Shown: piece by piece, positions 9,570-42,296 of the stretch | Layout of the letters: each line of letters begins with the position of its first letter | Position numbering within the stretch: the stretch's first letter is position 1 | IMG/VR virus record: IMGVR_UViG_3300018063_000016 | Coordinates: 1-52,756 of that record | Source of the DNA: a virus | Lineage: Duplodnaviria > Caudoviricetes | Length of the DNA: 52,756 nt | Strand: one strand, 5' to 3' | Program-made: the position numbers and the translations under genes | The notes under the pieces: generated by a model | Told to the model about the DNA's origin: nothing | Database searches by the model: none | The model's input: the letters and a program-made list of their open reading frames with translations, nothing else

Positions 9570-11666
9570 ATGTCAGACCTAGTCGCAGAAGAAAACTGGC
9601 AGCGCTTCAACTACGCGCTGACCCGGGGGCATCGCAACTACACCGAGCAGGCGCAGCTATGCGAACGCATGTACCTGGGCGGGGGCCGGCAGTGGAGCCC
9701 CGAGGACAAGGCCGTGCTCGACGAGCAGAAGCGCCCGGCGTACGAGTTCAACGAGATCCTGCCGAGCATCAACAGCGCCATCGGTCACCAGCTGCACAAC
9801 CGCATGGACATCACCTTCAAGCCGCGCGGGGGCGACGCCGACCAGGCGCGCGCGGACACGTTCGCCAAGGTGACGATGCAGATCGCCGACAACACGCACC
9901 TGCACTGGAAGGAGACGGAGGTTTTCGGCGACGGGCTCATCCAGCAGCGCGGCTACTTCGACGTGCGCATGGAGTTCGACTCCAACATGCAGGGCAACCT
10001 CCAAGTAACGGTGCCCGACCCGCTCGACATCATCCCCGACCCCGACGCCAAGACGTACGAGCCCGAAGGGTGGGCCGATGTGCTGTGGACGCGCTGGCTC
10101 ACGTACGACGAGGTTGAGGGCAACTACGGCAAGAAGGCGCGCCAGGCCGTCGAGCAGCGCTACAGCAGCAACGAGGATGCGGACTGGGGCGACTCGGGCG
10201 ACGACTCGGGTGCTGCGCGCAACAAGTTCGGGGATGCCGCGTTCGCCTCGGGCGGGTTCGATGCGTTGTACCGCCAGGGCAACGTGCAGCGCGTGCGCAT
10301 CATCGACCGGCAGAAATGGGTGCGCTCGATGACGCAGTGCCTGTTCTACCCGCGCACGGGCGACCTGAAGGTTGCCGAGAACCTGTCGACGCCGGTGCTG
10401 ATGCGCGAGCTCGAGCAGGGCGCGATCCGCACGAAGGCGATGCAAAAGCGCGTGCGCTGGACCGCCTCGACGATGGACATCGCGCTGCACAACGAGTGGA
10501 GCGAGTACAACGGCTTCACGATCATTCCGTACTTCGCGCTGTTCCGCCGCGGCCAGACGATCGGACTCGTCGACAACGCGATCGGCCCGCAGCAGGCCAA
10601 CAACAAGGCGCTGAGCCAGTTCGTGCACATCGTCAACTCCGCGGCCAACAGCGGATGGATCGTCGAGGAGAACAGCCTCGTCAACATGGACAGCGCCGAG
10701 CTCGAGCACAAAGGCGCCATGACCGGGCTCGTGCTGGAGTTCAAGAAGGGCAGCGCGGCCCCGCAGAAGATCCAGCCCAACCAAGTACCGCAGGGCGTGG
10801 ACCGACTCATCGAGCTGACGCGCAACGCGCTCAAGAACGTCACCGTGCCCGATCCGATGCGCGGCATGGACGGCGCCGACACGTCGGGCGTCGCACGCCA
10901 GCACGCGCAGTTCGCCTCGCAGCAGCAGATCGGCTTGCCGCTCGACAACCTCGCGCGCACGCGCCACCTGCTGGCGGAGAAGTTCCGCGACCTGATCCAG
11001 CAGTTCTACACCGACGAGCGCGTGATCCGCATCACCGAGACGGACTTCGCCACCGGCGAGCCGATCGACGCGTCGGTCACGATCAACCAGATGGACCCCA
11101 TGACTGGGGAGTACGCCAACGACCTGACCGTGGGCGACTACGACGCCGTCGTCACCGAGCAGCCGGCCGCCGTCACCTTCGAGAACTCGCAGTTCCAGCA
11201 GGCCCTTGCGATGCGCAAGGAGGGCGTCGCGATCCCCGACTCGACCGTGGTGCAGCACAGCTCGCTCACGCGCAAGAAGGACGTGCTCGAGGAGATGGCC
11301 CGCAACGCCGCCAACAGCGGCGACCCGCTGGCCGCCGCCAAGGCCGAGCTCATCAAGGCGCAGACCGTCAAGACGCAGAACGAGTCGGTCAACGTCAGCG
11401 TCGAAGGCATGTTCAGCGCCACGCAGGCCGCCAATCAGATCGCCGCGGTGCCGCAAGTCGCACCGCTGGCCGATCAACTGCTCAAGTCGGCCGGGTTCAT
11501 CGACATGGACGGGCCGCCGATCGTGCCGACCGTGCCCGAGGGCGTCATGCCGGGCGCGATTGACGTACAGGAAAACACGTCACCGCTGTTCCCCGCGCGT
11601 ACACAAAATCCTGGTGAAGGTTTGATGCATGGCATCGAAACGATTGACCAAGGAGTGCCTCAATGA
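9570..11666 (+). CDS. portal protein (P22-like)
   Basis: ~700 aa after terL; YLGGGRQW, RPAYEFNEILP, IIPDPDA, NKALSQ motifs; GAGGGAG SD. Confidence 0.88.
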   Translation: MSDLVAEENWQRFNYALTRGHRNYTEQAQLCERMYLGGGRQWSPEDKAVLDEQKRPAYEFNEILPSINSAIGHQLHNRMDITFKPRGGDADQARADTFAKVTMQIADNTHLHWKETEVFGDGLIQQRGYFDVRMEFDSNMQGNLQVTVPDPLDIIPDPDAKTYEPEGWADVLWTRWLTYDEVEGNYGKKARQAVEQRYSSNEDADWGDSGDDSGAARNKFGDAAFASGGFDALYRQGNVQRVRIIDRQKWVRSMTQCLFYPRTGDLKVAENLSTPVLMRELEQGAIRTKAMQKRVRWTASTMDIALHNEWSEYNGFTIIPYFALFRRGQTIGLVDNAIGPQQANNKALSQFVHIVNSAANSGWIVEENSLVNMDSAELEHKGAMTGLVLEFKKGSAAPQKIQPNQVPQGVDRLIELTRNALKNVTVPDPMRGMDGADTSGVARQHAQFASQQQIGLPLDNLARTRHLLAEKFRDLIQQFYTDERVIRITETDFATGEPIDASVTINQMDPMTGEYANDLTVGDYDAVVTEQPAAVTFENSQFQQALAMRKEGVAIPDSTVVQHSSLTRKKDVLEEMARNAANSGDPLAAAKAELIKAQTVKTQNESVNVSVEGMFSATQAANQIAAVPQVAPLADQLLKSAGFIDMDGPPIVPTVPEGVMPGAIDVQENTSPLFPARTQNPGEGLMHGIETIDQGVPQ

Positions 11667-12289
11667 ACGAGAAGTTCGGTCGGTACACGGTACTGGCGGA
11701 AGCCGGTTCTAAGAACGACATGCGTCAAGTACTGTGTCGATGCGAATGCGGTACCGAGCGGGTCGTCTACATGAAGAACCTTCGCTCGGGAAATTCGCAG
11801 TCGTGCGGGTGCCTGGCGTCGGAGACAACCGCCCGCCGCAACTTCAAGCACGGGCACGCCAAGACGCCAACTTGGCAGATATGGGTCGGCATGCTGCAGC
11901 GGTGCAGCGAAACGGCGACCGGCGACAACAAGGCGGCGTACTTCGATCGCGGCATTCGCGTGTGCGAGCGTTGGCAGGAGTTCGCCAACTTCCTCGCCGA
12001 CATGGGGGAGCGCCCCACAGGCATGTCGCTTGATCGTCACCCCAACGGCGAGGGCAACTACGAGCCGGGCAACTGCCGTTGGGCGACGCCTACGCAGCAG
12101 TCTCGCAATACGAGCCGAAACAAGCTGCTGACCTTCGCCGGGGAAACGCTCACGTGTGCCGAGTGGGCACAGCGCAAGGGGTGGTCGCCGGACGTCATCA
12201 AAAACAGGTTGCGCTATGGCTGGCCCGTTGAGCGAATCCTCACGACCGAGCCGCATCCAAACGACCCGGGCCTGGGAGTGACTGCGTGA
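11663..12289 (+). CDS. free-standing HNH homing endonuclease
   Basis: CRCECG, SCGC, RGIRVCERW, SLDR..GNYEPGNCRWAT..QSRN; AAGGAG SD. Confidence 0.88.
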   Translation: MNEKFGRYTVLAEAGSKNDMRQVLCRCECGTERVVYMKNLRSGNSQSCGCLASETTARRNFKHGHAKTPTWQIWVGMLQRCSETATGDNKAAYFDRGIRVCERWQEFANFLADMGERPTGMSLDRHPNGEGNYEPGNCRWATPTQQSRNTSRNKLLTFAGETLTCAEWAQRKGWSPDVIKNRLRYGWPVERILTTEPHPNDPGLGVTA

Positions 12290-29600: not shown

Positions 29601-32600
29601 ATGTTCGCTGACCTGATCCCCGGCGACGGCGAGCAGCCGTCCGGCATGTTCGACGACCTGATCCCTGGCGCGAAGGCCAAACCCGCGCCGAGCTCGGGCA
29701 TGTTCGACGACCTCGTGCCGGCCGCGGCCGAGCCGGGTTTCGTCCCGACCATCAAGCGCACCGGCGGGCAGATGCTCACCGGGGTCGCGCGCGCGATCGA
29801 CGACATCACCGGGCCGAACGTCGTCACCGAGAAGATCCGCGACACCGGGCAGGGGATCGTCGACCGCAATCCCGCCGGCATCACGAGTCTCGGCGACGTG
29901 GTCGAAAAGCCGTGGCTGACGGTCAAGGAGTCGGTCGGGCAGATGGTCCCGCAGATCGCTGCCGGCGTTCCCTCGCGCATGGCCGGCGCTGCACTGGGCG
30001 CCAAGATCGGCGGCCAGGCCGCGGGCGGGCGCGGTGCACTGATCGGCGGCGCGATCGGCGGGCTCGCCCCGATCTTCGTGCAGGAGTACGGCGGCATCCG
30101 CGACGAGCAGATCGAGGGCGGCCAGGAGTCGATCCCGCGCGCGCTCGGCGGCGCCGTCGCGGCCACCGCGCTCGAGCGCCTCGGTCCGGAAGGCCGGATC
30201 ATCTTCAAGGGACTGAACCCGGTAGCGCGCACCGGCAAGGAGATTGCCGCGCAGGCCGGGCGCGACGTGCTCGTCGAGGGCGCCACCGAAGGGGCGCAGT
30301 CGGTCATCGAGCAAGTCAGCGCGTTCAAGGACCCGCTGGACCCCGCCAGCCTCGAGGAGACGGCGCTGTCGTCGATCATGGGCGGCGTCGGCGGGGGTGT
30401 CGTGGGCGGTGCGCACGCCGCGCTCAGCTCCGCGCTGGCGCCGGCCGACGTTTCACGGGGAACGTCGGACACGCCGCCACCCGCCGCACCCGCCGCACCG
30501 GTGCCACCCGTCGAGCCCGTTGCGCCCCCCGGGGATTCAAGTTCACCAAGTTCACAACGTTCACCGGGCGATCCGCTGCGCGACCAGGCGCTGCCCCCGG
30601 CCGGGCCGCTGTCCAAGGCGGTCAACATCGGCATCGAGGGCGAGGCGCAGCAGGCCGACACCGGAGCGCCCACCCCCGCGCCGATTAGCGGGGCTATGGC
30701 GGGCGTGCCGCCGGCGCCGGTACCTGCACAGGGCGAGGGCGACGATCGTGGCAAGGCGGCCGACGTAGCCCCGCCGGCACCCGTTTTCGTGCCCCCGCAA
30801 ACCCTGCCGCCGGCGTCCATCGATCCCGACCTCGCGCTCGACCGCATGCGCCGCACCAACGCGGCGTACGAGGAGATCGTCAAGGAGCGCGATCAAGCGC
30901 AACCGCCGCCGCCCCCGCCCGGTCCCCAGGTCGCCGATGTACTCGACCCGACCGGTAAACCTTTCCGAACCCCGCTGCAGGCGCGGCGCGCGGGCGCGAA
31001 ACAGGAGTTCCCCGACGAGTGGGCCATCGCCCAGGTCGACGGCGGGTACGTGCTGCGCGCGCGCGGCGTCGACAAGGGAGTGGGCGATGTTGCTGGTGTG
31101 CCTGCAGGAGCTGGTGCAGTACGAGGCGATGACGGAGGACGAGGCGATGGTGCTCGACCACTTCGCGAGGCTCCCCAGGACCTCGCCGCAGCGCCGGCGC
31201 TGCCCGCTGGAGTTGCTGGTGAAGTTCCAGCAGTGTTGGAAGCTGGCGCAGATGGACGAGTTGCTGATGACCCGGCACTGAGCGCGCCGCCGGCGCCCGC
31301 TACGATCGACCCCGCTGCCGCCCTGGTTAGTCCCGTTTCAACCCCGCAGGGGCCACAAACGGATTTGCTGGGCCAGGACGGCAGCAACCCGCCGCCGTCA
31401 GGCCCGATCACGCGCGCCGTGGCGGCGCTGCCTGCGACCCCTGCGACCATCGCAGGTGCGACCATCGCACCCCCTGCGACCATCGCGCCCACGGTGGACG
31501 AACGTACACCGACGCCGGCGTACGACTTCGACACCACCTTCCCGACGCCGCAATTCGAGGAGTTGGCGCGCGTCGGCCGCCTGTCGGTCTTCGAGGGCAT
31601 CGACGACATAGACATGCCCGGCGCCCTGGCCGAGTGGCATCAGGATGTCGCGCAGACCATCGGCCACGGCCAGAACACCGCCCGGGCCGACCTCGACCTG
31701 GCCGACGCCGGCGCCGACGCCACCGGCAAGAAGCTGACCCCCAAGCAGATCAAGGGGCTGCGCGAGTCCGCGCGCCAGTCGATCGACATCAACCGCGGCG
31801 AGCTCGACGACTACGCCGGCGAGTTCGGGCTCGACGCGGCCGACGCGTTCACGCGCTACGTCGCCCCCGAAATCGACGCGCTCGAGCAGCGCGCCGCGCC
31901 GGCGGTCACGCTCGACGCCAACGCGCACCAGGCCGCGGCATCGCCCACCAACGGCAAGCCCGAGCCGACCCGCGGGCAGATCGAGGCCGGAAACGCGGAG
32001 TTGGGGCACGACAACACGACGTTCCCGGGGCTCGACCTGTCATTCGAGAACCCGGCCGGCTCGGTGCGCGAGGACAAGGCCAACGTTCCGCCGAAGTGGC
32101 GGACCGTCATGGAGCATCACTATGGCTTCGTGAAAGGCAGCGTCGGAGCCGACAAGGACCACGTCGATGTGTTCGCGAAACCCGGTACCCCGGAGGGACA
32201 CGCGGGCCCTGTTTTCGTCGTCGATCAACAGCACCCCGATGGGGGGTTCGACGAAGCGAAAGTGATGCTAGGCTTCAACGACGAAGCCGAGGCGCGCACC
32301 GCCTACCTGTCGAACTACGAGCCGGGCTGGCAGGGGCTTCAGTCGATCACGCCGATGGCGTTTGACGCGTTCAAGCAGTGGGTGTTCGACAAGAAGGCAA
32401 CGCGCAAGCCCGCAGCTCAGTGGAGCGGCAATGGCAGGGAAGCCCCGAACGGAACGTCACGGTCTGAGCAAGACGCCGATGTACCGTCTTTGGCAGAACG
32501 TGAAGGATCGTTGCCTCAACCCGCGCAACCCGTACTTCCACAACTACGGGGGCCGGGGAGTGCAGCTTTGCCCGGAGTGGCGGGACAGCTTTCTGGCGTT

Positions 32601-35600
32601 CCAGAAGGCAGTCGGTCCTCGACCAAGTCCACGACATACGTTGGACCGCAGGGAGAACGACGGCCACTATCAGCCGGGCAACGTGCGGTGGGCGACAAGG
32701 AAGGAACAAGCGCACAACATGCGCAAGAACCGACTGCTGACGTTCCAAGGAAGGACGCAGACACTGACGGCCTGGTCGGAGGAACTGCGCCTGCCGACCG
32801 CGACGATCTACAACCGGCTGCAGCGCAAGGGGCTGAGCGTGGAGAAAGCGCTCAGCCTGCCGCGGGGCAAGTACACCTACAGGCATCGACAACCAAAGTT
32901 CGCCCCGGCGGCAAGCGCACCCTAGCCGATCGCCGCGCCGAGGCCGCAGATCAAGCGAACGCGGAAATACAAGCAGTCAGCGCGCAGACTGCACAGTCTG
33001 CCGGCACAGCGCTTGACGCGCAGCGCGCCGCCCAGGTTGCCCCAAGTTCCGCCCAGGTTGCCCCAAGTGGCCCCATCCAGCAGGTACCGAACGAGCCGGG
33101 CGTCGGCTACGTGCTGCCGTCGTTCGTTACCGCGCAGCAGACCGGCGGCAAGCGCACCCTGCAGGACCGTCGCGACGAAGTGAAGGCCGCGCAGACCCTG
33201 CCCGCACCATCGGGCGGCCTGTTCGCCGAGTGGAACGGCCAGCGCCACGCCGTCGAGTCGATCGAGGACGCGCAGCGCAAGTGGGATGCGTTCCGGCTCG
33301 AGGCAGTCAAGCAGGGCGCTGGCGCCAGCGCTGTCGGCGATGGCGTGCGCGTGGTCGACGCGCAGGGCAAGCACGTCGCGAACATCTCCTACAACGGGCG
33401 CGCATGGACCCCCGAGGGGAAGCCGATCGAGGCACCGAATACAGGAATTCATGAAGTCACTTCCACAAAACCGGAAGTCCCCGATGCCGCGAACGAGGGT
33501 GCGAGCACTGTTGCCGCAACTCCCCCAACGGAACAAACTCCAACACCAGAGGCCCCCGCAAATGATCCCGCCGCTGCAATCCCTGCGCCTGCGCTCGATA
33601 AGCCGCTGGCTGACGGACGTGTACCCGAAGGAGTACGCGAGCTCGACCCAGTCCGAGGCGCTGCAAGCCCGCGCGACGAGCCTGGACGAGCAGATGATCG
33701 AAACCTTCGAGGAAGCGGACAGCGCGCTGATGCATCGCCTGATGCGGGCGAACAAGTGGGGGACGGAGGAAGGGCTGCAGACGTACAACACGGATCGGAT
33801 GGTCCTGTGGCAGCAGGTGTGCAGCGACTACCTGCCGACACCAAGCGAGGACGAGACTTCCGAGCCACCCCCGCCGACCTCGAGCGAAGCGGAAGCTGGT
33901 ACGACACCGCCCGACGCAACGTCGACCTGATCGACCTCGCGCGCAAGATCGACGCCGAGAAGCGCCCGGCCACGCCGGCCGAGCAGCGCGAGCTCGCCAA
34001 GTACGTGGGCTTTGGCGCCGGCGAGATCCGCAACAAGCTGTTCCCGATCCCCACCGAGTACGACCGCCAGCGCGAGCCGCAGCGCCTGGTTTGGCCCTCG
34101 CGCGTGTACGACGAGAACTGGCGCGCGCTGGCCGAGCGCATCGACGCGCTGCCGCGCGAGTGGCAGGAAACCGTCCTGCAATCGACGCAGTACGCGCACT
34201 ACACCAGCGGCAACATCGTCGCGTCCATCTGGAGCGGCGTGCAGCGCCTGGGCTTCACCGGCGGCAAGGTGTTCGAGCCCGGGCACGGCATCGGCTCGTT
34301 CGCGATGCTGATGCCCGACGCGCTGCACAAGGGCAGCAAGTACACCGGCATCGAGTTCGACGGGCCGACCGCGCTCATCAGCCGGCTGCTGTCGCCGCAG
34401 CAGAACATGCTGCACGACGACTTCACCAAGCGCCGTGTGCCCAAGGACTACTTCGACATCGCCATCGGCAACCCGCCGTTTGCGAAAACGAAGATCGTCG
34501 CCGACCCCGAGTACGCGAAGCTCAACCTGTCGCTGCACGACTACTTCTTCGCCAAGGCCATCGACCGCGTGCGTCCGGGCGGGCTGCTCGTGTTCGTCAC
34601 CAGCCACTACACGCTCGACAAGCAGACCGACAAGGCCCGCAAGTACCTCGCCGAGCGTGCCGATCTGCTCGGCGCGATCCGCCTGCCGCAGACCGCCTTC
34701 AGCGACAACGCCGGCACCAAGGTCGTGACCGACGTGATCTTCCTGCGCAAGCGCGCACCCGGGGAGGCAAGCGCGGGCCCCGCGTGGCAGGGCGTGACGA
34801 AGATCGACACCAAGGACGGCCCGGTGGGCGTCAACGAGTACTTCGCCGCGCATCCCGAGATGGTGCTCGGGCAGCAGCGCCTGTCGGGCCACCGCGACGA
34901 CCGCGACCGCTACATCAGCGGGCTGCGCAGCGACGGCGAGTACACGGTCGTCTCGTACGACGACAGCGCCGCCGAGCTCGACGCGAAGTTCGCCAAGGCC
35001 GTCGAGCAACTGCCCGCCAACGCCTACTCGCCGCTGCAGCAAGACAGCGCCACTGTGAAGCGCGAGACCGCGCGCATCGACTTCGACCCGAAGGTCAAGC
35101 GCGAGGGGGTCGTGTACCTGGCCGACGACGGCACGCTGATGCGCGTCAAGGACGGCACCGGCAAGGCGCTGGCCGACGAAGTGAAGCTGTCCGACAAGGA
35201 CGCGCAGTGGTTCAAGGGCTATGTGGGCATCCGCGAGCTCGTGCAGCAGGCGCGCGCCGCGCAGTTCGTCGACGCCGACTGGGAAGGCGCGCTGAAGAAG
35301 CTGAACAAGGCCTACGACGCGTTCCGCAAGGCGCACGGGCCGCTGCTCGACTTTCGCGTGCAGGTCCGCAAGTCCACCGACGACGAGGGCAACGTCGTCG
35401 AAACCGCGACCCGCGTCTACAAGAATCGCCGGCTGTTCCGCGAGGACTACGACGCGGCCGTCGTGACCTCGCTCGAAACCGAGACCGAGGCCGGCGACAT
35501 CGTCAAGGCGACGTTCCTGAAGGAGCGCACGATCGGCAAGCCGGTGACGCGCGACGTGAAGACCATCGGCGACGCGCTGGCGGTCTCGCTGGACGAAACC

Positions 35601-38600
35601 GGCAAGCTCGACCTCGACGACATCGGGCAGCGCCTGAACCTCACCCGCGACGACACCATCGAGGCGCTCGGCAACCAGGTCTACCGCACCCCGCAGGGGC
35701 AGTGGCAGCTCGCCGACGAGTACCTGTCGGGCAACGTGGTCGAAAAGCTCGCCGAAGCGATGGACGCTGCGGCCGCCGACCCCGCGCTCGAGCGCAACGT
35801 CGAGGCCCTGAAAGCGGTGCAGCCCGACAAGCTCGGCCCGTCGCAGATCACGGTCAAGCTCGGCACGACTTGGGTGCCCGCCAAGCACGTCGACGTGTTC
35901 GCCAAGGTGCTCGAAGCCGGGGACGTCACCTTCGACCACAAGACCGAAACCTGGCAGGTTGAGGGCTCCACGTCGCGCTGGAAGGGCGGCACGGCTTCCG
36001 AGTACGGCACTGCGCTGCGCTCGCCGTCGTGGATTCTCGAAGCGGTGCTCAACAGCCGCGTCATCAAGGTCGAAATCCTCGACAGCGACAGGAAGATCGA
36101 CCGCGAGCGCACCGAGAAGGCCACCACCGCGGCCAACGAAGTGGCGCGCAAGATGCGCGAGAAGTTCAAGTCGTGGGTGTGGACCGACACCGACCGCGCC
36201 GTCGAGCTCGTCGAGCTCTACAACGAGCAGTTCAACAACATCGCGCCGCGCGCCTTCGACGGCTCGCACCTGACGCTGCCCGGCGTGTCGCTGCGCTACA
36301 AGCTGCACCCGCACCAGCTGCGCGCCATCTGGCGGCAGATCCAGACCGGCAACGCCTACCTCGCGCACGCGGTGGGCGCCGGCAAGACACTGGAGATGAT
36401 CGCCGGCGGCATGGAGCAAAAGCGCCTCGGGCTGATCCGCAAGCCGATGTACGTGGTGCCCAACCACATGCTCGAGCAGTTCGCCAACGAGTTCATGGAC
36501 GCGTACCCGCTGGCCAACGTGATGGTCGCCGACGACGAGAACTTCTCGAAGGAACGGCGCAAGGCGTTCGTCGCCGCGGCCACGCTCAACGCACCCGACG
36601 CGATCGTCATCACGCACAGCGCATTCGAGCGCATCGGCGTGAAGGAAGAAAGCGTCAAGCCGATCCGCGACGCGATCGTCGGCGACCTGCACGCCGCGCT
36701 GCACGACACCGGCAAGGACGAGCGCGTGAAGCGCCAGCGCCTGGAGCAGCAGATCGAGCAGACCAAGCAGCGCTTCGACAAGATCGTGGGCGCTGGCACC
36801 AAGGACTCGACGACGCACTTCGAGGACATGGGCGTCGACTTCGTCTACGTCGACGAGGCGCACACGTTCCGCAAGCTCGACTTCACGACCAACCAGCAGA
36901 TCAAGGGCATCGACCCCACCGGGTCGCGCCGCGCGCTGGACCTGTACGTGAAGACACGGTTGCTCGAAGCCCGGCGCCCGGGCCGCTCGATGGCGTTCGC
37001 CTCGGGGACGGCGGTCACCAACACGATGGGCGAGCTCTACACGGTGATGCGCTTTTTCGCGCAGGCCGAGCTCGAGCGCTCGGGCATCTCGACCTTCGAC
37101 GCGTGGAGCCGGCAGTTCGCCGAGTCGGTGACGGCGCTCGAAGCCAACGCGGCCGGCGTCTACGAGCCGGTCACGCGCTTCGCGAAGTTCGTCAACATCC
37201 CCGAGCTGATGAGCCGGGTGCGCATGTTCATGGACGTGCTCAACTCGGAGCACCTGGGCGCGCTCGTCGAGCGCCCCGACCTCGAGGGCGGCAAGCCGAA
37301 CCTCGTGGTGGTGCCGGCCACCCTCGCGCTGCAGCGCTACATGAGAACGGTGCTCGAGCCGCGCGTCGCCGCGTCGCGCGCGTTCAGGCAGCGCCCGGGG
37401 CACCCCAACCCCGACCCGATGATCGCCATCATCAGCGACGGCCGCTTCGCGTCGCTCGACCCGCGGTTCTTTGGCGCCGAAGTCAAGGCGGACACGCCGA
37501 CCAAGCTGACCGAGATGGGCGATGCCGTGGCCGCCGAGTACAAGGCGACCGCCGGCAACTCCTATCAGGACGTCGACGGGCGCGACGAGCCGGTCAAGGG
37601 CTCGACGCAGATGGTGTTCTACAACCTCGGGTTCGGCCAGGCGAGCCAGACCAACCGCGGCTTCAACGCGCGCACCGCGTTCACCAAACGCCTCGTCGAG
37701 AAGGGCATCAAGCGCGAGCACATCACGTGGTTCGACGACGCCGACTCGGACGCCAAGAAGGAAGCGGTGTTCAAGGCGATGCGCGCCGGTCAGATCCGCG
37801 TGCTGATCGGCTCGGCCAAGAAGATGGGCACCGGCGTCAACGTGCAGAAGCGCCTGTCGATGCTGCACTACTTCGACGCGCCCTGGTACCCGGCCGACAT
37901 CGAGCAGCCGCACGGCCGCATCCTGCGCCAGGGCAACCAGAACCCGGTCGTGCGCATCAATTGGTACACGACCAAGGGCTCGTACGACTCGACCATGTGG
38001 GACATGGTCGCGCGCAAGCAGCGCTTCATCGATCAGGCGTTTGCCGGCGACAAGACGCTGCGCACGATGGAGGACCTGAGCGAGGCGTCGCTGTACGAGC
38101 AGGCCGCCGCACTCGCCTCGGGCGACCCGCGCGCCATCCAGCTCGCCGGGCTGAAGCAGGACGTGGAACGCCTGGAGCGCTTGCAGGCCGCGCACGCGAG
38201 CGAGCAGATCAGCGTGAAGTGGGCGGTACAGACCGAGCAGTCGCACGTCGCCTCGCACACGGCCGAGGAAAAGAAGCTCGCCGCGGCGTTCAAGGCGATC
38301 GGCGAGCGCTACGTGTCGTGGGACGGTGGCAAGGTCGGCTCGGTGCACTACGCCAAGCACGGCGAGTTCGGCGAAGCCCTCAAGCGGGCCTTCAACCGCG
38401 TCGCCCTCGAGCGCACCGGCGACGACAGCAAGGCGTGGACGCAGCTCGGCAGCATCGAGGGCATGCCGATCAAGATGCGCCCGTACATGAACAACAAGGA
38501 CAAGCCCGAGGGCTTCGTCGTCTACCTCGACCTCGGGCCGCTGAGCGAGCACATCTTCAGCTCGGACGGCCAACTGCCGCCGGACACCAACACCGTCGCC

Positions 38601-41600
38601 CTCGCGCAAAACCTGTTCCGCCCGCTCAATGCGATCGAGGGCAAATTGGCGCAGGCGCGGGCCGGCATCACGCGCGCGGACGCCGAGCTCGTGCGGCTCA
38701 ACAAGAAGCTCGGCGCCCCCTTCGAGTACACGCAGGAGCTCGTCGAGAAGTACGCCGATCTCAAGCGGCTCGAGGACTCGCTGAAGGACGACGGCGACAC
38801 GGCGAAGAAGGCGGCCGCGGGCGGCGTGCGCGAAAGCGAGGCGATCGAGAAGTGGGCGCGCGAAACGGGCGCGATCACGCCGCCGTTCCGCCGCGACGAC
38901 GAGGACGCCGGGGCCGGGCTCCCGGCCGACGTGCTGCGCAAGCACGTGCGTGCGATAGCAGCACAGTGGGCCAACGCCCCGCGCGTGTACGTCGTGGGCG
39001 GGCTCAACGACGCGATGGTCCCGCAGGCCGTGCGCGACGAGGACAAGCGCCAGCGCGAGGGCAAGGCCAAGGGCGACCCGCAGGCGTTCCAGTTCGGCGG
39101 CGCCGTGTACCTCGTGGCCCCGCAGATCGCGAACACCGACCAGGCCACGCGCGCGCTGCTGCACGAAGTGCTCGGTCACGCCGGGCTGCGCGGCACGTTC
39201 GGCAAGGACTTCGCAGTACTGCTCGACGCTATTGCGAAAATGCGAAAGGCCGACCTCGAGGCCGCAGCGCAGCATTACGGACTCGACCTTGCCAACGAGG
39301 CCGACCGGCGCATCGCTGCCGAGGAAGTGCTCGCCAAGATGGCCGAGACGCAGCCTACGCTCGGGTGGGTGCGCAAGGCGATCGCCGCCATCCGCTCCTG
39401 GCTGCGCAGCGCGGGCTTCAAGCTCGAGCTCACCGACGACGAGATTGTTCGCGAGCTGATCCTGCCGGCGCGTGCGTTCATCGAGCGCGGTACGCAGCGC
39501 CCCGACGCCACCGACACCCCGGCATTCAGCCGCAGCGGCGAGTTCCTCGACACGATGCGCCAGGCCGCCACCAAGCGCGGGCTGTCCAACCTCATCGCCG
39601 ACCTGTTCAACAAGCAGCCCGGCACCTTCAATTGGTGGCATCGGTCGGTGGGAACGCAGTTCCACAAGGCACGCGTGAATGCGGAGTTCCGCCCGGTGTA
39701 CGAGGGCGCGCAGGACTTCATGCACGACACGTCCGCGTTCGCCCAGGACGCGGCCGAGTACGCACCGAGCCTGCTCCCGCAGCTCAAGCAGTTCAGCGAC
39801 ATCTGGCGCCCGATCGCGCTGTCGGCCGCCGACGCCAAGGCGCTCGCGCCGGCGGTGTTCACCGGCACGCTGACCGACACCATCTACGGCGCCGGCGAGC
39901 TGGCCAGCCGCTTCGGGTTGAACGCCAAGCAGATCGGCCAGTACGAGCAGTTCCGCGCCGCGACCGATCGCTCGCTCGACACGCTCGTCGCGAGCGAAGT
40001 CGCGCGCTACCTCGCGGCCGACTCGAGCATCCCGCGCGCCTTCAAGGACATGGTGTCTGACGGCGACGTGGGGCGCTTCAAGGGGCTCGTGACGCTGTAC
40101 CTACAGAACAAGCTCGCCGAGGCCGACGCCGAGCTCGCGCGCGTGCGCCTGGCCAACCGGCGCGAGCTGGCGGCACTGCACGCGCGCCACCGCGAGGAGC
40201 GCGCCGCGGTGCGCGCCGGCGGCATGCTGTCGATCGAGCAGCGCCTCGAGGACGAGCTCGACGCCATGAAGGCGCAGCACGAGCAGGACCTCGGGCAAGC
40301 GCAGGCCGCGCGCGACAAGGCCGAGACGGTGCGCGCCGCGGTGGCCACCAAGTACGAGAAGGTCGACAAGCTGAAACGCGAGGGCTACGCGCCCCTGATG
40401 CGCTTCGGCAAGTACGCGGTGCACGTGACCGAGACGAACGCGGACGGCGAGGAGGAGACGATCCACTTCTCCCTGCACGAAAGCCAGCGCGAGGCCAACG
40501 CCCTGGCGCGCACGCGCCGCGAGCGGCGCACCCCCCGCGAGCACGTCTACCAGAACGAGATGCCGCAGGAGACGTACAAGCTGTTCAACGGGCTCAACCC
40601 GGAGACCGTCGCGCTGTTCGCCGAGCTGTCGGGCATGGAGCAGACCGACGCCATGCAGGAGTACTTGAAGCTCGCGATCGCCAACCGCTCGGCGCTCAAG
40701 CGCCTGATCCACCGCAAGGGCACGCCGGGCTACTCCGAGGACGCGAGCCGCGTGCTGGCCGCGTTCGTGACGTCCAACGCGCGGCAGTCCTCGCTGAACC
40801 TGCACATGCACGGGCTCGACGCGGCGATCGCCGACATGGAAAAGCGCCGCGTCACCGGCGGCGTCATCGACGAGGCGATCAAGCTGCGCGACTACATCAA
40901 GCACCCGCAGGAGGAGGCGCGCCACGTGCGCTCGCTGCTGTTCGTGCAGTACCTGGGCGGCTCGGTCGCGTCGGCGCTCGTGAACATGACGCAGCCGCTG
41001 ACCATGACGTACCCGTACCTCGCGCAGTGGGGCGGCGCGGTGAAGGCCGCGGCGCGCGTTATGCAGGCTACGAAGCAATCCCTGCATAGGCAGACCGGCG
41101 CACTGGGCGACGCACTGCACCGCGCCGAGCGCGACGGCGTCATCCAGCCGCAGGAAATCCACCAGCTGCAGGCCGAGGCAACGCGCGGGCTCGGCAGCAA
41201 CCAGGCCATACGCCGCGTGCTGTTCGCGTGGGGGAGCTTGTTCTCGCTGGCCGAGCAGTTCAACCGCCGCTCGACGTTCATCGCCGCGTGGAACACCGCC
41301 ACCGCCGAGGGCATCGCCAACCCGTTCGACTTCGCCATCGAGGCCGTCGAGCAGACGCAGGGCGTCTACAACAAGGGCAACCGCCCCAACTGGGCGCGCG
41401 GCGCGGTGGGCGCAACGATCTTCACCTTCAAGCAGTTCAGCATCAGCTACGTGGAGTTCCTCAAGCGCCTTCCGCGCAAGCAGCAGATGCTCGCGCTCGG
41501 GGTGCTGATGCTGGCCGCCGGCGTACAGGGCCTGCCCGGCGCCGACGACCTCGACGACCTGCTCGATACGCTGTGGCAGGCGCTCGGCTACGACACCAAC

Positions 41601-42296
41601 ACCAAGCTGGCCAAGCAGCGTTTCCTGACCGAAGTGTTCGGCGCTGGCGGGGCGGACTTCATCCTGCACGGCTTCAGCGCGCTTCCGGGCTTCCCGCTCG
41701 ACGTGAGCGCGCGCATGGGACTGGGCAACCTGATCCCCGGTACCAGCCTGCTGCTCAAGTCGAACATCCGCAAGCAGGACGAAGTACTCGAAGTACTCGG
41801 GCCCGCCGGCGGCATGGCGCGCGACGTGGCGCGGGGCATCAGCGACGGCACCCCGAGCAAGTTCCTGCCCACCGCGTTCCGCAACATGGGCAAGTCGGCC
41901 GACATGATCGACACCGGCTGGTACCGCGACGACCAGGGGCGCAAGGTGCGGCCCACCGACGAGACGGACGCCTTCGTCAAGTTCCTGGGCTTCCAGCCCG
42001 CGCACGTGGCGCGCGAGTCGCGCATGCTGCACCAGGCCGACCAGCAGAAGAACCTCGCCAAGGTCACCGAGGACGAGATTGCCGACAAGTGGGCGCGCGG
42101 GGTGGCCGAGAAGGACGCCGACACGGTGACCGAGGCGCGCAAGCAACTCGCCCAGTGGAACCGCGACAACCCGGGCACGCCCATCCGCATCTCGCCGCGC
42201 CAGATCCGCGGCCGGGTGCAGGACATGAACCGCACGCGTGAGCAAAGGTTCCTGCGCTCTACACCCAAGGAGTTGCGCGGCACAATCCTGCAGTGA
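29601..42296 (+). CDS. giant DarB-like polyvalent virion protein: InPase, N6-adenine MTase, SNF2 helicase, zincin-like peptidase, PLxRFG domain
   Basis: MFDDL repeats; ENPAGS..HYG..GADKDHVDVF..FDEAKVMLG; FEPGHGIG and NPPF; HAVGAGKT, VDEAH, GRILRQGN; HEVLGH..EEVLA; GYAPLMRFG. Confidence 0.92.
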   Translation: MFADLIPGDGEQPSGMFDDLIPGAKAKPAPSSGMFDDLVPAAAEPGFVPTIKRTGGQMLTGVARAIDDITGPNVVTEKIRDTGQGIVDRNPAGITSLGDVVEKPWLTVKESVGQMVPQIAAGVPSRMAGAALGAKIGGQAAGGRGALIGGAIGGLAPIFVQEYGGIRDEQIEGGQESIPRALGGAVAATALERLGPEGRIIFKGLNPVARTGKEIAAQAGRDVLVEGATEGAQSVIEQVSAFKDPLDPASLEETALSSIMGGVGGGVVGGAHAALSSALAPADVSRGTSDTPPPAAPAAPVPPVEPVAPPGDSSSPSSQRSPGDPLRDQALPPAGPLSKAVNIGIEGEAQQADTGAPTPAPISGAMAGVPPAPVPAQGEGDDRGKAADVAPPAPVFVPPQTLPPASIDPDLALDRMRRTNAAYEEIVKERDQAQPPPPPPGPQVADVLDPTGKPFRTPLQARRAGAKQEFPDEWAIAQVDGGYVLRARGVDKGVGDVAGVPAGAGAVRGDDGGRGDGARPLREAPQDLAAAPALPAGVAGEVPAVLEAGADGRVADDPALSAPPAPATIDPAAALVSPVSTPQGPQTDLLGQDGSNPPPSGPITRAVAALPATPATIAGATIAPPATIAPTVDERTPTPAYDFDTTFPTPQFEELARVGRLSVFEGIDDIDMPGALAEWHQDVAQTIGHGQNTARADLDLADAGADATGKKLTPKQIKGLRESARQSIDINRGELDDYAGEFGLDAADAFTRYVAPEIDALEQRAAPAVTLDANAHQAAASPTNGKPEPTRGQIEAGNAELGHDNTTFPGLDLSFENPAGSVREDKANVPPKWRTVMEHHYGFVKGSVGADKDHVDVFAKPGTPEGHAGPVFVVDQQHPDGGFDEAKVMLGFNDEAEARTAYLSNYEPGWQGLQSITPMAFDAFKQWVFDKKATRKPAAQWSGNGREAPNGTSRSEQDADVPSLAEREGSLPQPAQPVLPQLRGPGSAALPGVAGQLSGVPEGSRSSTKSTTYVGPQGERRPLSAGQRAVGDKEGTSAQHAQEPTADVPRKDADTDGLVGGTAPADRDDLQPAAAQGAERGESAQPAAGQVHLQASTTKVRPGGKRTLADRRAEAADQANAEIQAVSAQTAQSAGTALDAQRAAQVAPSSAQVAPSGPIQQVPNEPGVGYVLPSFVTAQQTGGKRTLQDRRDEVKAAQTLPAPSGGLFAEWNGQRHAVESIEDAQRKWDAFRLEAVKQGAGASAVGDGVRVVDAQGKHVANISYNGRAWTPEGKPIEAPNTGIHEVTSTKPEVPDAANEGASTVAATPPTEQTPTPEAPANDPAAAIPAPALDKPLADGRVPEGVRELDPVRGAASPRDEPGRADDRNLRGSGQRADASPDAGEQVGDGGRAADVQHGSDGPVAAGVQRLPADTKRGRDFRATPADLERSGSWYDTARRNVDLIDLARKIDAEKRPATPAEQRELAKYVGFGAGEIRNKLFPIPTEYDRQREPQRLVWPSRVYDENWRALAERIDALPREWQETVLQSTQYAHYTSGNIVASIWSGVQRLGFTGGKVFEPGHGIGSFAMLMPDALHKGSKYTGIEFDGPTALISRLLSPQQNMLHDDFTKRRVPKDYFDIAIGNPPFAKTKIVADPEYAKLNLSLHDYFFAKAIDRVRPGGLLVFVTSHYTLDKQTDKARKYLAERADLLGAIRLPQTAFSDNAGTKVVTDVIFLRKRAPGEASAGPAWQGVTKIDTKDGPVGVNEYFAAHPEMVLGQQRLSGHRDDRDRYISGLRSDGEYTVVSYDDSAAELDAKFAKAVEQLPANAYSPLQQDSATVKRETARIDFDPKVKREGVVYLADDGTLMRVKDGTGKALADEVKLSDKDAQWFKGYVGIRELVQQARAAQFVDADWEGALKKLNKAYDAFRKAHGPLLDFRVQVRKSTDDEGNVVETATRVYKNRRLFREDYDAAVVTSLETETEAGDIVKATFLKERTIGKPVTRDVKTIGDALAVSLDETGKLDLDDIGQRLNLTRDDTIEALGNQVYRTPQGQWQLADEYLSGNVVEKLAEAMDAAAADPALERNVEALKAVQPDKLGPSQITVKLGTTWVPAKHVDVFAKVLEAGDVTFDHKTETWQVEGSTSRWKGGTASEYGTALRSPSWILEAVLNSRVIKVEILDSDRKIDRERTEKATTAANEVARKMREKFKSWVWTDTDRAVELVELYNEQFNNIAPRAFDGSHLTLPGVSLRYKLHPHQLRAIWRQIQTGNAYLAHAVGAGKTLEMIAGGMEQKRLGLIRKPMYVVPNHMLEQFANEFMDAYPLANVMVADDENFSKERRKAFVAAATLNAPDAIVITHSAFERIGVKEESVKPIRDAIVGDLHAALHDTGKDERVKRQRLEQQIEQTKQRFDKIVGAGTKDSTTHFEDMGVDFVYVDEAHTFRKLDFTTNQQIKGIDPTGSRRALDLYVKTRLLEARRPGRSMAFASGTAVTNTMGELYTVMRFFAQAELERSGISTFDAWSRQFAESVTALEANAAGVYEPVTRFAKFVNIPELMSRVRMFMDVLNSEHLGALVERPDLEGGKPNLVVVPATLALQRYMRTVLEPRVAASRAFRQRPGHPNPDPMIAIISDGRFASLDPRFFGAEVKADTPTKLTEMGDAVAAEYKATAGNSYQDVDGRDEPVKGSTQMVFYNLGFGQASQTNRGFNARTAFTKRLVEKGIKREHITWFDDADSDAKKEAVFKAMRAGQIRVLIGSAKKMGTGVNVQKRLSMLHYFDAPWYPADIEQPHGRILRQGNQNPVVRINWYTTKGSYDSTMWDMVARKQRFIDQAFAGDKTLRTMEDLSEASLYEQAAALASGDPRAIQLAGLKQDVERLERLQAAHASEQISVKWAVQTEQSHVASHTAEEKKLAAAFKAIGERYVSWDGGKVGSVHYAKHGEFGEALKRAFNRVALERTGDDSKAWTQLGSIEGMPIKMRPYMNNKDKPEGFVVYLDLGPLSEHIFSSDGQLPPDTNTVALAQNLFRPLNAIEGKLAQARAGITRADAELVRLNKKLGAPFEYTQELVEKYADLKRLEDSLKDDGDTAKKAAAGGVRESEAIEKWARETGAITPPFRRDDEDAGAGLPADVLRKHVRAIAAQWANAPRVYVVGGLNDAMVPQAVRDEDKRQREGKAKGDPQAFQFGGAVYLVAPQIANTDQATRALLHEVLGHAGLRGTFGKDFAVLLDAIAKMRKADLEAAAQHYGLDLANEADRRIAAEEVLAKMAETQPTLGWVRKAIAAIRSWLRSAGFKLELTDDEIVRELILPARAFIERGTQRPDATDTPAFSRSGEFLDTMRQAATKRGLSNLIADLFNKQPGTFNWWHRSVGTQFHKARVNAEFRPVYEGAQDFMHDTSAFAQDAAEYAPSLLPQLKQFSDIWRPIALSAADAKALAPAVFTGTLTDTIYGAGELASRFGLNAKQIGQYEQFRAATDRSLDTLVASEVARYLAADSSIPRAFKDMVSDGDVGRFKGLVTLYLQNKLAEADAELARVRLANRRELAALHARHREERAAVRAGGMLSIEQRLEDELDAMKAQHEQDLGQAQAARDKAETVRAAVATKYEKVDKLKREGYAPLMRFGKYAVHVTETNADGEEETIHFSLHESQREANALARTRRERRTPREHVYQNEMPQETYKLFNGLNPETVALFAELSGMEQTDAMQEYLKLAIANRSALKRLIHRKGTPGYSEDASRVLAAFVTSNARQSSLNLHMHGLDAAIADMEKRRVTGGVIDEAIKLRDYIKHPQEEARHVRSLLFVQYLGGSVASALVNMTQPLTMTYPYLAQWGGAVKAAARVMQATKQSLHRQTGALGDALHRAERDGVIQPQEIHQLQAEATRGLGSNQAIRRVLFAWGSLFSLAEQFNRRSTFIAAWNTATAEGIANPFDFAIEAVEQTQGVYNKGNRPNWARGAVGATIFTFKQFSISYVEFLKRLPRKQQMLALGVLMLAAGVQGLPGADDLDDLLDTLWQALGYDTNTKLAKQRFLTEVFGAGGADFILHGFSALPGFPLDVSARMGLGNLIPGTSLLLKSNIRKQDEVLEVLGPAGGMARDVARGISDGTPSKFLPTAFRNMGKSADMIDTGWYRDDQGRKVRPTDETDAFVKFLGFQPAHVARESRMLHQADQQKNLAKVTEDEIADKWARGVAEKDADTVTEARKQLAQWNRDNPGTPIRISPRQIRGRVQDMNRTREQRFLRSTPKELRGTILQ
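30445..30468. promoter_or_regulatory. parS-like palindrome
   Basis: CCGACGTTTCACGGGGAACGTCGG; core resembles GTTTCACGTG(A/G)AAC. Confidence 0.4.
31087..31281 (+). CDS. nested 64-aa protein in the +1 frame of the giant gene
   Basis: AAGGGAG SD; almost all codons end in G/C while host-frame GC3 collapses. Confidence 0.65.
   Translation: MLLVCLQELVQYEAMTEDEAMVLDHFARLPRTSPQRRRCPLELLVKFQQCWKLAQMDELLMTRH
32431..32925 (+). CDS. nested HNH homing endonuclease in the +1 frame of the giant gene
   Basis: GGAG SD; HGLSKTPMYRLW..RC..NYGGRGVQLCPEW..TLDRRENDGHYQPGNVRWAT..QAHN. Confidence 0.85.
   Translation: MAGKPRTERHGLSKTPMYRLWQNVKDRCLNPRNPYFHNYGGRGVQLCPEWRDSFLAFQKAVGPRPSPRHTLDRRENDGHYQPGNVRWATRKEQAHNMRKNRLLTFQGRTQTLTAWSEELRLPTATIYNRLQRKGLSVEKALSLPRGKYTYRHRQPKFAPAASAP
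33562..33930 (+). CDS. nested TnpV-like helical protein in the +1 frame (alternative start 33451)
   Basis: AGAGG SD; GC3-rich; RWLTDVYPKEY..SEALQARATSLDEQMIETFE..QVCSDYL resembles the TnpV pattern. Confidence 0.65.
   Translation: MIPPLQSLRLRSISRWLTDVYPKEYASSTQSEALQARATSLDEQMIETFEEADSALMHRLMRANKWGTEEGLQTYNTDRMVLWQQVCSDYLPTPSEDETSEPPPPTSSEAEAGTTPPDATST

Follow-up and report, generated by a model that had tools for sequence, protein, structure and literature searches.

The IMG/VR virus record IMGVR_UViG_3300018063_000016 (52,756 bases, 68% G+C, estimated to be 87% complete), which was analyzed over its whole length and is called the window here, carries a gene for a virion protein of 4231 amino acids and, out of frame within it, an open reading frame (ORF) for an HNH-like protein of 164 amino acids. 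It is probable that the smaller ORF is a gene in its own right with its own internal start, that the polyvalent host gene is read through it without interruption, and that the segment carrying both frames is a mobile cassette. The features on which this reading is built are the following.

29601..42296, + strand: host ORF, a large polyvalent (DarB-like) virion protein, 4231 aa.
31977..32384, + strand: InPase domain, host residues 793-928 (Pfam PF18823, E 1e-40).
32422..32425, + strand: Shine-Dalgarno-like GGAG, 5 nt upstream of the embedded ATG.
32430..32924, + strand: host-frame reading of the cassette, ~165 hydrophilic residues, predicted to be unstructured.
32431..32925, + strand: embedded HNH-like ORF, 164 aa, in the +1 phase of the host (ATG 32431, TAG 32925; PHROG 3377; model with a mean predicted local distance difference test score, pLDDT, of 86.9).
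11663..12289, + strand: free-standing paralogue with an N-terminal Zn-ribbon and three stops in the equivalent frame.

The embedded ORF begins 46 nt after the end of the InPase domain and includes LDRRENDGHYQPGNVRWATRKEQAHN. Its product matches PHROG 3377, ‘HNH endonuclease’, with an E value of 1.6e-49, and is 37% identical to that of the free-standing gene (E 5e-26). A preliminary description of the window had reported an HNH-family ORF with such a core, related to the gene at 11663-12289, starting right after the InPase domain and holding several T-ending codons without causing a stop in the host frame, and had noted that the equivalent frame of the free-standing gene does contain stops. All of these elements are present in the sequence, and the observation was therefore correct: of the ORF's codons, 14 end in T and none of these precedes a codon that begins with AA, AG or GA; the host frame has no stop, and the paralogue has stops at 11710, 12031 (TGA) and 12229.

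When the embedded protein was compared with 50,697 phage records by tblastn, matches were found in 1077, the best two of which lie inside giant genes of the Ralstonia phages Gamede (58% identity) and GP4 (55% identity). A further ~35 close homologues came from metagenomes. A chance ORF in GC-rich DNA was considered and ruled out by this homology and by the conservation described below. The embedded ORF is unannotated in the four public records of Gamede and GP4 (both phages and their GenBank twins), in which the giant coding sequence alone is listed; gene callers therefore miss such genes. Homologues were also seen in several Staphylococcus Kayvirus-like phages under features annotated as dUTPase, which could be another embedded case or a mis-annotation.

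The host protein contains, besides InPase, Eco57I-type methylase and SNF2/helicase domains (Pfam), and at the DNA level its gene is related to giant genes annotated as ‘DarB-like antirestriction’ in Ralstonia phages and in Burkholderia phages, Bcep22 among them. The protein corresponds to what Iyer et al. 2017 (PMC5512222) call a large polyvalent virion protein; the available part of their text describes many effector domains (InPase, methylase, helicase, LPD) within one virion-associated polypeptide.

Nine embedded copies were compared: those of the window, Gamede (L001) and GP4 (L002), and six more (L004, L005, L006, L010, L011 and L017), which came from scans of IMG/VR, of a set with one genome per species and of metagenomes. 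The ORF is intact in all nine copies, which are only 50-63% identical, and in every case it occupies the +1 phase of a long ORF of between 902 and more than 4200 codons that crosses it without a stop. The host proteins of the relatives carry LPD1, LPD3, LPD38 and SLT domains.

Whether an open host frame is to be expected by chance can be calculated. A stop arises in the host frame when a T-ending codon of the HNH frame is followed by a codon starting with AA, AG or GA, and the probability of an open frame was computed exactly from the protein sequence and the codon usage of the host gene (4.6% of the codons of that gene end in T). For the window this probability is 0.24, and its open frame, taken singly, is unsurprising by chance. 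The corresponding values are 0.117 for L004, 0.023 for Gamede, 0.008 for GP4, 0.0046 for L006 and 0.0023 for L005. Among metagenome loci, 77 of 80 have at least one stop in the equivalent frame, GC-rich loci included (one to three in most, up to nine); the host frame is stop-free in nine of nine embedded copies. Pooled over these nine, T-ending codons occupy 0 of 336 risk sites and 101 of 938 sites elsewhere (Fisher p = 1.8e-14, a figure in which independence is overstated, as the copies share ancestry). In free-standing relatives with a third-position G+C of at least 0.70, the counts are 24 of 293 risk sites and 113 of 902 elsewhere. Because the embedded copies share only 50-63% of their amino acids, their third positions have turned over many times. 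The comparison across relatives supports selection having kept the host frame free of stops.

The frame that is conserved as protein could be identified by comparing the window with Gamede. Over 138 aligned core codons, 38, 40 and 67 differences fall at positions one, two and three of the HNH frame, and the translations share 58% of their amino acids in the HNH frame, 39% in the host frame and likewise 39% in the third frame, where stops interrupt the reading. Inside the cassette it is the HNH frame that shows the usual codon-position G+C pattern of the genome; the third-position G+C of the host frame, 0.86-1.0 along nearly the whole giant ORF, is 0.44-0.50 there. The third-position bias, the frame identities and the G+C signature together place protein-level selection on the HNH frame. 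Across the cassette, the host frame shows no independent conservation of amino acids and is constrained only to stay open.

What the host frame encodes across the cassette is hydrophilic. Hydrophobic residues make up 13% of this stretch in the window as against 27% in the rest of the protein, and 10-15% as against 22-28% among the embedded copies and their hosts. An AlphaFold2 model of the stretch gave pLDDT values of 29-44 and no secondary structure, as against 55-82 for the adjoining InPase domain, on a shallow alignment of five sequences. The preliminary description had proposed that the host translates the guest frame as a disordered linker while the guest acts as an HNH nuclease. The first half of this proposal is supported by computation, in that the stretch is kept stop-free by selection, is hydrophilic and is predicted to be unstructured; an active nuclease is less well supported, as the protein lacks both a Pfam HNH match and a conserved histidine.

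Each embedded copy also carries putative start signals of its own. A Shine-Dalgarno-like motif lies 5-16 nt before the start codon in nine of nine copies, and this codon is ATG in all except L004, where it is GTG. A promoter scan detected no sigma-70-like promoter on the + strand near the embedded ORF of the window, a result that fits translation from a long mRNA.

Explanations that deny either the read-through or the separate gene are hard to reconcile with these data. If the cassette were an intron, of group I, group II or another type, or were removed in some other way, the host protein would lack the read-through stretch. HNH-type genes are common in phage group I introns, and an uncatalogued ribozyme would be invisible to Rfam. 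However, Rfam showed no intron family at E <= 10 in 31000-34500 of the window and none at the gathering score in the eight other embedded loci, and an intron was rejected on these grounds; moreover, the avoidance of stops would be purposeless in a stretch that is spliced out, and the cassette has a length divisible by three (714 nt) in both Gamede and GP4. An intein was rejected because the embedded ORF is not in the host's reading frame and because Pfam detected no intein- or Hint-type domain in the host protein of the window. The earlier statement that neither intron nor intein is present thus held under the Infernal-type search it had called for and under Pfam, and removal of the cassette is extremely unlikely. 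A programmed +1 frameshift producing an InPase-HNH fusion, in place of initiation at the internal ATG, would accord with the 53 codons over which the +1 frame is open upstream of that ATG in the window. In L005, however, this frame is open for only 13 codons, and it is closed by a stop directly before the ATG in L017 and one codon before it in L011. The stops in L011 and L017 are at odds with a conserved frameshift that would join the ORF to the host domain before it, and this candidate was rejected; with a Shine-Dalgarno-like motif in all nine copies, such a mechanism deserves hardly any credence. That the +1 ORF is an unexpressed relic in DNA that now serves only as host linker is very improbable: the lack of annotation in four public records and an unconserved tail past residue ~145 would suit a relic, but an ORF that keeps its Shine-Dalgarno-like motif and start codon in nine of nine copies at 50-63% identity, shows a third-position substitution bias and a confidently predicted fold, and lies in a host frame without conservation of its own, would not.

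The cassette appears as a discrete unit in two phages of the same genus. Upstream of the site, the identity between Gamede and Cimandef is 99.88% over 4323 nt, and downstream of it 99.13% over ~6.4 kb. Between these flanks Gamede has 714 nt containing the ORF and Cimandef has 423 unrelated nt, both multiples of three. The Cimandef sequence (L003, 4324-4746) is an in-frame segment of 141 codons that is ParB-like and contains a DGHH motif. The 714-nt cassette recurs at this position in GP4, a phage of another genus. Two modules thus alternate here, the cassette of Gamede and GP4 and the ParB-like segment of Cimandef. The differences between Gamede and Cimandef cluster at the downstream boundary (43 nt just after it and ~30 nt before it), which is how a co-conversion tract would look and, equally, how an ordinary recombination joint would look. 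The preliminary description had expected an in-frame indel on comparison with relatives that lack the insert; this is what these relatives have, but the boundaries of the window's own cassette are not defined, since no insert-less near-twin close enough to the window was found in the phage records or in IMG/VR.

In a tree of 84 homologues (five rows with internal stops were dropped), the nine embedded copies and two free genes, L008 and L009, form one clade with a Shimodaira-Hasegawa-like approximate likelihood ratio test (SH-aLRT) support of 98. The free gene in L008 overlaps the stop codon of an ORF of 317 aa with an InPase domain at its end, and the one in L009 lies just upstream of an InPase ORF. 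InPase is directly upstream of five of the nine embedded copies (window, L004, L010, L011 and L017) whereas the host proteins of Gamede, GP4, L005 and L006 have no such domain; the edge of an InPase gene is thus the site of 7 of 11 clade members. The cassette is also found after a small domain (Gamede, GP4 and L005) and in a low-complexity stretch (L006), so that at least three kinds of flanking context are represented in the clade, with the phase identical throughout. Five InPase-containing polyvalent genes without the cassette are present in IMG/VR.

These data also bear on origin. Rather than by insertion of a cassette, the arrangement could have arisen when two neighboring genes fused across a free-standing HNH gene in a state like that of L008, where the gene sits between an ORF ending in InPase, whose stop it overlaps, and the next gene. 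L008 and L009 fall inside the embedded clade, and the available part of Iyer et al. 2017 (PMC5512222) describes polyvalent proteins as built by fusion. Against such a fusion are the discrete presence or absence of the cassette in Gamede and Cimandef, the variety of flank contexts and a tree that is unrooted within the clade, with inner forks supported at only 86-89. Fusion is a possible origin, albeit a doubtful one, and it concerns the origin only. The following features describe the predicted fold of the embedded protein.

32635..32718, + strand: predicted beta-beta-alpha core, residues 69-96 (D72, invariant R73, N84, N96).
32734..32856, + strand: C-terminal hairpin and helical, helix-turn-helix (HTH)-like part, residues 102-142 (from secondary structure and weak HTH Pfam matches in relatives).

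The AlphaFold2 model of the embedded protein (mean pLDDT 86.9) has a helical N-terminal domain, strands at residues 69-73 and 85-89, a helix at 90-95, a hairpin and three helices. It gave 96 fold matches at E <= 1e-3 in BFVD, several of which are named HNH or HTH homing endonuclease, and which also include Twort ORF076. Conservation was examined in two alignments, one of 34 close relatives (A1) and one of 57 wider relatives (A2). Residues invariant in both include R27, G43, R73, Y80, N84, W87 and N96; the conserved asparagines of the HNH motif are thereby present as N84 and N96. Invariant R73 directly follows an acidic residue (D/E72) and stands at what we take to be the position of the catalytic histidine in the HNH_3 consensus. 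The tail past residue ~145 is unconserved, and the N-terminal Zn-ribbon present in free relatives is absent from the embedded clade. The copies in L011 (3965-4603, 212 aa) and L017 (3962-4609, 215 aa) are longer than the others because their C-terminal HTH-like module is duplicated, and the host frame is open across the extra module as well.

Several results weigh against the reading proposed here, most of them against the nuclease label. No invariant histidine was found among the 34 close or the 57 wider relatives. The embedded protein had no Pfam match at E <= 10 apart from an unrelated weak one, and no NCBIfam match; among the 57 wider relatives, HNH_3 is touched by one (E 1e-3) and AP2 by two. 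No relative was found in the PDB by sequence, and by fold nothing fell below E 0.9, the weak top matches (E 0.9-9) being HNH nucleases; with no significant PDB match, there is no solved relative to anchor an active site. To these are added the chance level calculated for the window alone, the shared ancestry behind the pooled counts, the shallow alignment behind the disorder prediction, the missing near-twin of the window and the promoter scan, which yielded no positive support. The protein appears to be HNH-like, and its nuclease label is weak; for this reason it is termed HNH-like here and its nuclease activity is treated as putative.

The same architecture might accordingly house an inactive, HNH-derived DNA-binding protein, either a regulator or a recruited helper, in a cassette that would spread among mosaic polyvalent genes through ordinary recombination and not through breaks of its own making. 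The absence of a conserved histidine, with invariant R73 beside an acidic residue in its place, the absence of a Pfam HNH match, the HTH-like C-terminus and the absence from the embedded clade of the Zn-ribbon of free relatives would all suit such a protein, and for the relatives in the phages Pacc40 and Tiff81 the HNH label is called ‘less certain’ in the available part of Arsenault et al. (PMC11855218). The behavior of the family nevertheless resembles that of free-standing homing endonuclease genes: it is sporadic, often present in several copies per phage, and located within unrelated genes or next to them. The exchange seen in a pair of 99%-identical phages, with differences clustered at the boundary as in co-conversion, also points away from an inactive DNA-binding protein, as does the retention of N84, N96 and the predicted beta-beta-alpha unit. 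An inactive DNA-binding protein is considered rather unlikely, and the mobile, read-through cassette remains the preferred reading.

Under the preferred reading, a gene of the phage family annotated as HNH or HTH homing endonucleases lies in the +1 frame of the host gene, at the C-terminal edge of the InPase domain. Ribosomes in the host frame would run through the cassette and add ~165 hydrophilic, probably disordered residues as a linker between domains. Other ribosomes would start at the internal GGAG-N5-ATG and produce the 164-aa protein, with its helical N-terminal domain, beta-beta-alpha core and C-terminal HTH. The cassette would move as a unit, with a length and phase that leave the host ORF unbroken, and codon choices that create a stop in the host frame would be removed by selection. 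That both frames are translated, that the linker is disordered and that the embedded protein cleaves DNA and homes are inferences. The evidence that bears on homing is indirect: the cassette is present or absent between near-identical phages, differences cluster at its boundary, and 7 of 11 clade members are associated with InPase genes.

A repeat was also found around the end of the embedded ORF.

32905..32941, + strand: direct repeat with 33142-33178, over the stop of the embedded ORF (37 nt, 81% identical, 237 nt apart; GGKRTL.DRR in the host frame).

This repeat may be a duplicated piece of the start of the downstream domain. A comparable similarity, between the start of an insertion and the sequence 3' of the insertion site, is described in the available part of Arsenault et al. 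2025 (PMC11855218).

Three further stretches of the giant ORF were recorded. In the linker downstream of the cassette, 33028-33068 contains a perfect 20-nt tandem repeat, CCGCCCAGGTTGCCCCAAGT, with a spacing of 21. The third-position G+C of the host frame is 0.36-0.66 in 31101-31400 and 0.42-0.46 in 33501-33950 (0.70 in 33801-33950). In both of these stretches the +1 frame is genome-typical, and the host frame reads as a linker rich in G, A, R and D that is written in rare A- or T-ending codons. The +1 ORFs at 30937..31281 and 33286..33930 (P0123 and P0124) have no PHROG match, no relative in a large protein database and no counterpart in the compared loci.

A bolder proposal, which is speculative and judged improbable, is that one HNH-like lineage has become a ‘frame-transparent’ cassette whose -1 frame is permanently stop-free and hydrophilic. 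It would bring its own linker and could settle in any inter-domain joint of giant virion proteins, and the linkers at 31101-31400 and 33501-33950 could be decayed earlier guests. If this were true, polyvalent proteins would regularly gain linkers from mobile genes lying out of frame. Giant ‘linkers’ may hide genes. Gamede and Cimandef are cultured phages in which the site occurs naturally in a filled and an unfilled form, which makes them suited to homing tests.

The kind of arrangement found here was described in 2025, and what is added are the stop-avoidance statistics, the Shine-Dalgarno-like motifs, the deep clade and the association with InPase. The preliminary description had regarded it as another route, besides intron-encoded, intein-encoded and intergenic genes, by which a homing endonuclease gene spares its host; as a claim to an undescribed route this is outdated, since the same arrangement is reported by Arsenault, Gosselin and Gogarten (2025, Genes 16:178, PMC11855218), one of whose ORFs, in Pacc40, is a homologue of the ORF in the window. 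According to the available part of their article, the ShiLan domain is an insertion in actinobacteriophage DNA methylases that adds no stop to the host frame, hides an out-of-frame HNH gene and has no intron or intein features. The cassette shares with ShiLan its position as an insertion in a host ORF, the HNH-type ORF in an alternate frame, the stop-free host frame, the lack of an intron or intein signature, the predicted loop or disorder of the host-frame reading and a disjunct distribution among relatives. It differs in several respects, as far as that text goes: the ShiLan HNH family has a clear HNH core with Zn fingers; the host here is a polyvalent virion protein, in podophages whose relatives infect Burkholderia and Ralstonia; and leaderless initiation is proposed for ShiLan, for which no ribosome-binding site was found, whereas an SD (Shine-Dalgarno)-like motif precedes nine of nine copies here. 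Codon-level stop avoidance and a deep clade of embedded copies go beyond the ShiLan work, in the available part of which no stop-avoidance test was found.

A second hidden case in the same article is gp60 of Mycobacterium phage Pacc40, a helicase-methylase; Tiff81 and Sashimi carry the gene free-standing beside the methylase (PMC11855218, available part). The hidden ORF of Pacc40 is 49% identical to the ORF of the window over 86 aa (E 7e-23). In both systems the host is a large methylase/helicase protein and free-standing relatives lie beside the target gene, as in L008 and L009. Unlike the copies described here, the Pacc40 ORF is in the +2 phase, keeps the N-terminal Zn-ribbon, lacks the C-terminal HTH and falls outside the embedded clade. 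Its position outside the clade makes it a separate embedding event, so that members of this protein family have entered host genes independently on at least two occasions. The words polyvalent, DarB, Ralstonia and Burkholderia are not mentioned in PMC11855218, and a literature search on out-of-frame or hidden HNH genes found no article on polyvalent proteins among its results. The phenomenon reported in 2025 for actinobacteriophages is thereby extended to another phage group, among whose relatives are phages of Burkholderia and Ralstonia, and to the largest proteins known from phages. To our knowledge, this is the first codon-level evidence of a host frame kept open over long divergence.

The cassette can also be compared with other mobile endonuclease genes. 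Phages also carry free-standing homing endonuclease genes, such as seg and mob of T4, and mobE splits nrdA in Aeromonas phage Aeh1. The embedded gene resembles these in having its own start signals, a sporadic distribution, a place beside or inside a presumed target and flanking tracts like those of co-conversion; the difference is that seg, mob and mobE lie between genes or split the host into two ORFs, whereas the host ORF here is continuous. With intron- and intein-encoded homing endonucleases it has in common a selfish gene lodged in a host gene without destroying it. In those systems, unlike this one, the intervening sequence is removed; here no ribozyme or Hint domain was found, nothing is apparently removed and the cost is an extra linker. 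LAGLIDADG genes sit in frame within fungal mitochondrial rps3, to which they are fused. A cyanobacterial dnaX intein with an out-of-frame endonuclease is described in the available part of a recent preprint (bioRxiv 10.64898/2026.09.14.751524). In the rps3 and dnaX cases, as in the window, an endonuclease gene or its relative is nested in a coding sequence with no intron of its own; but the rps3 endonuclease is in frame and fused, and that of dnaX lies, so far as the preprint's available part describes it, inside an intein that splices, whereas the HNH-like ORF is out of frame in a host that appears to read straight through it.

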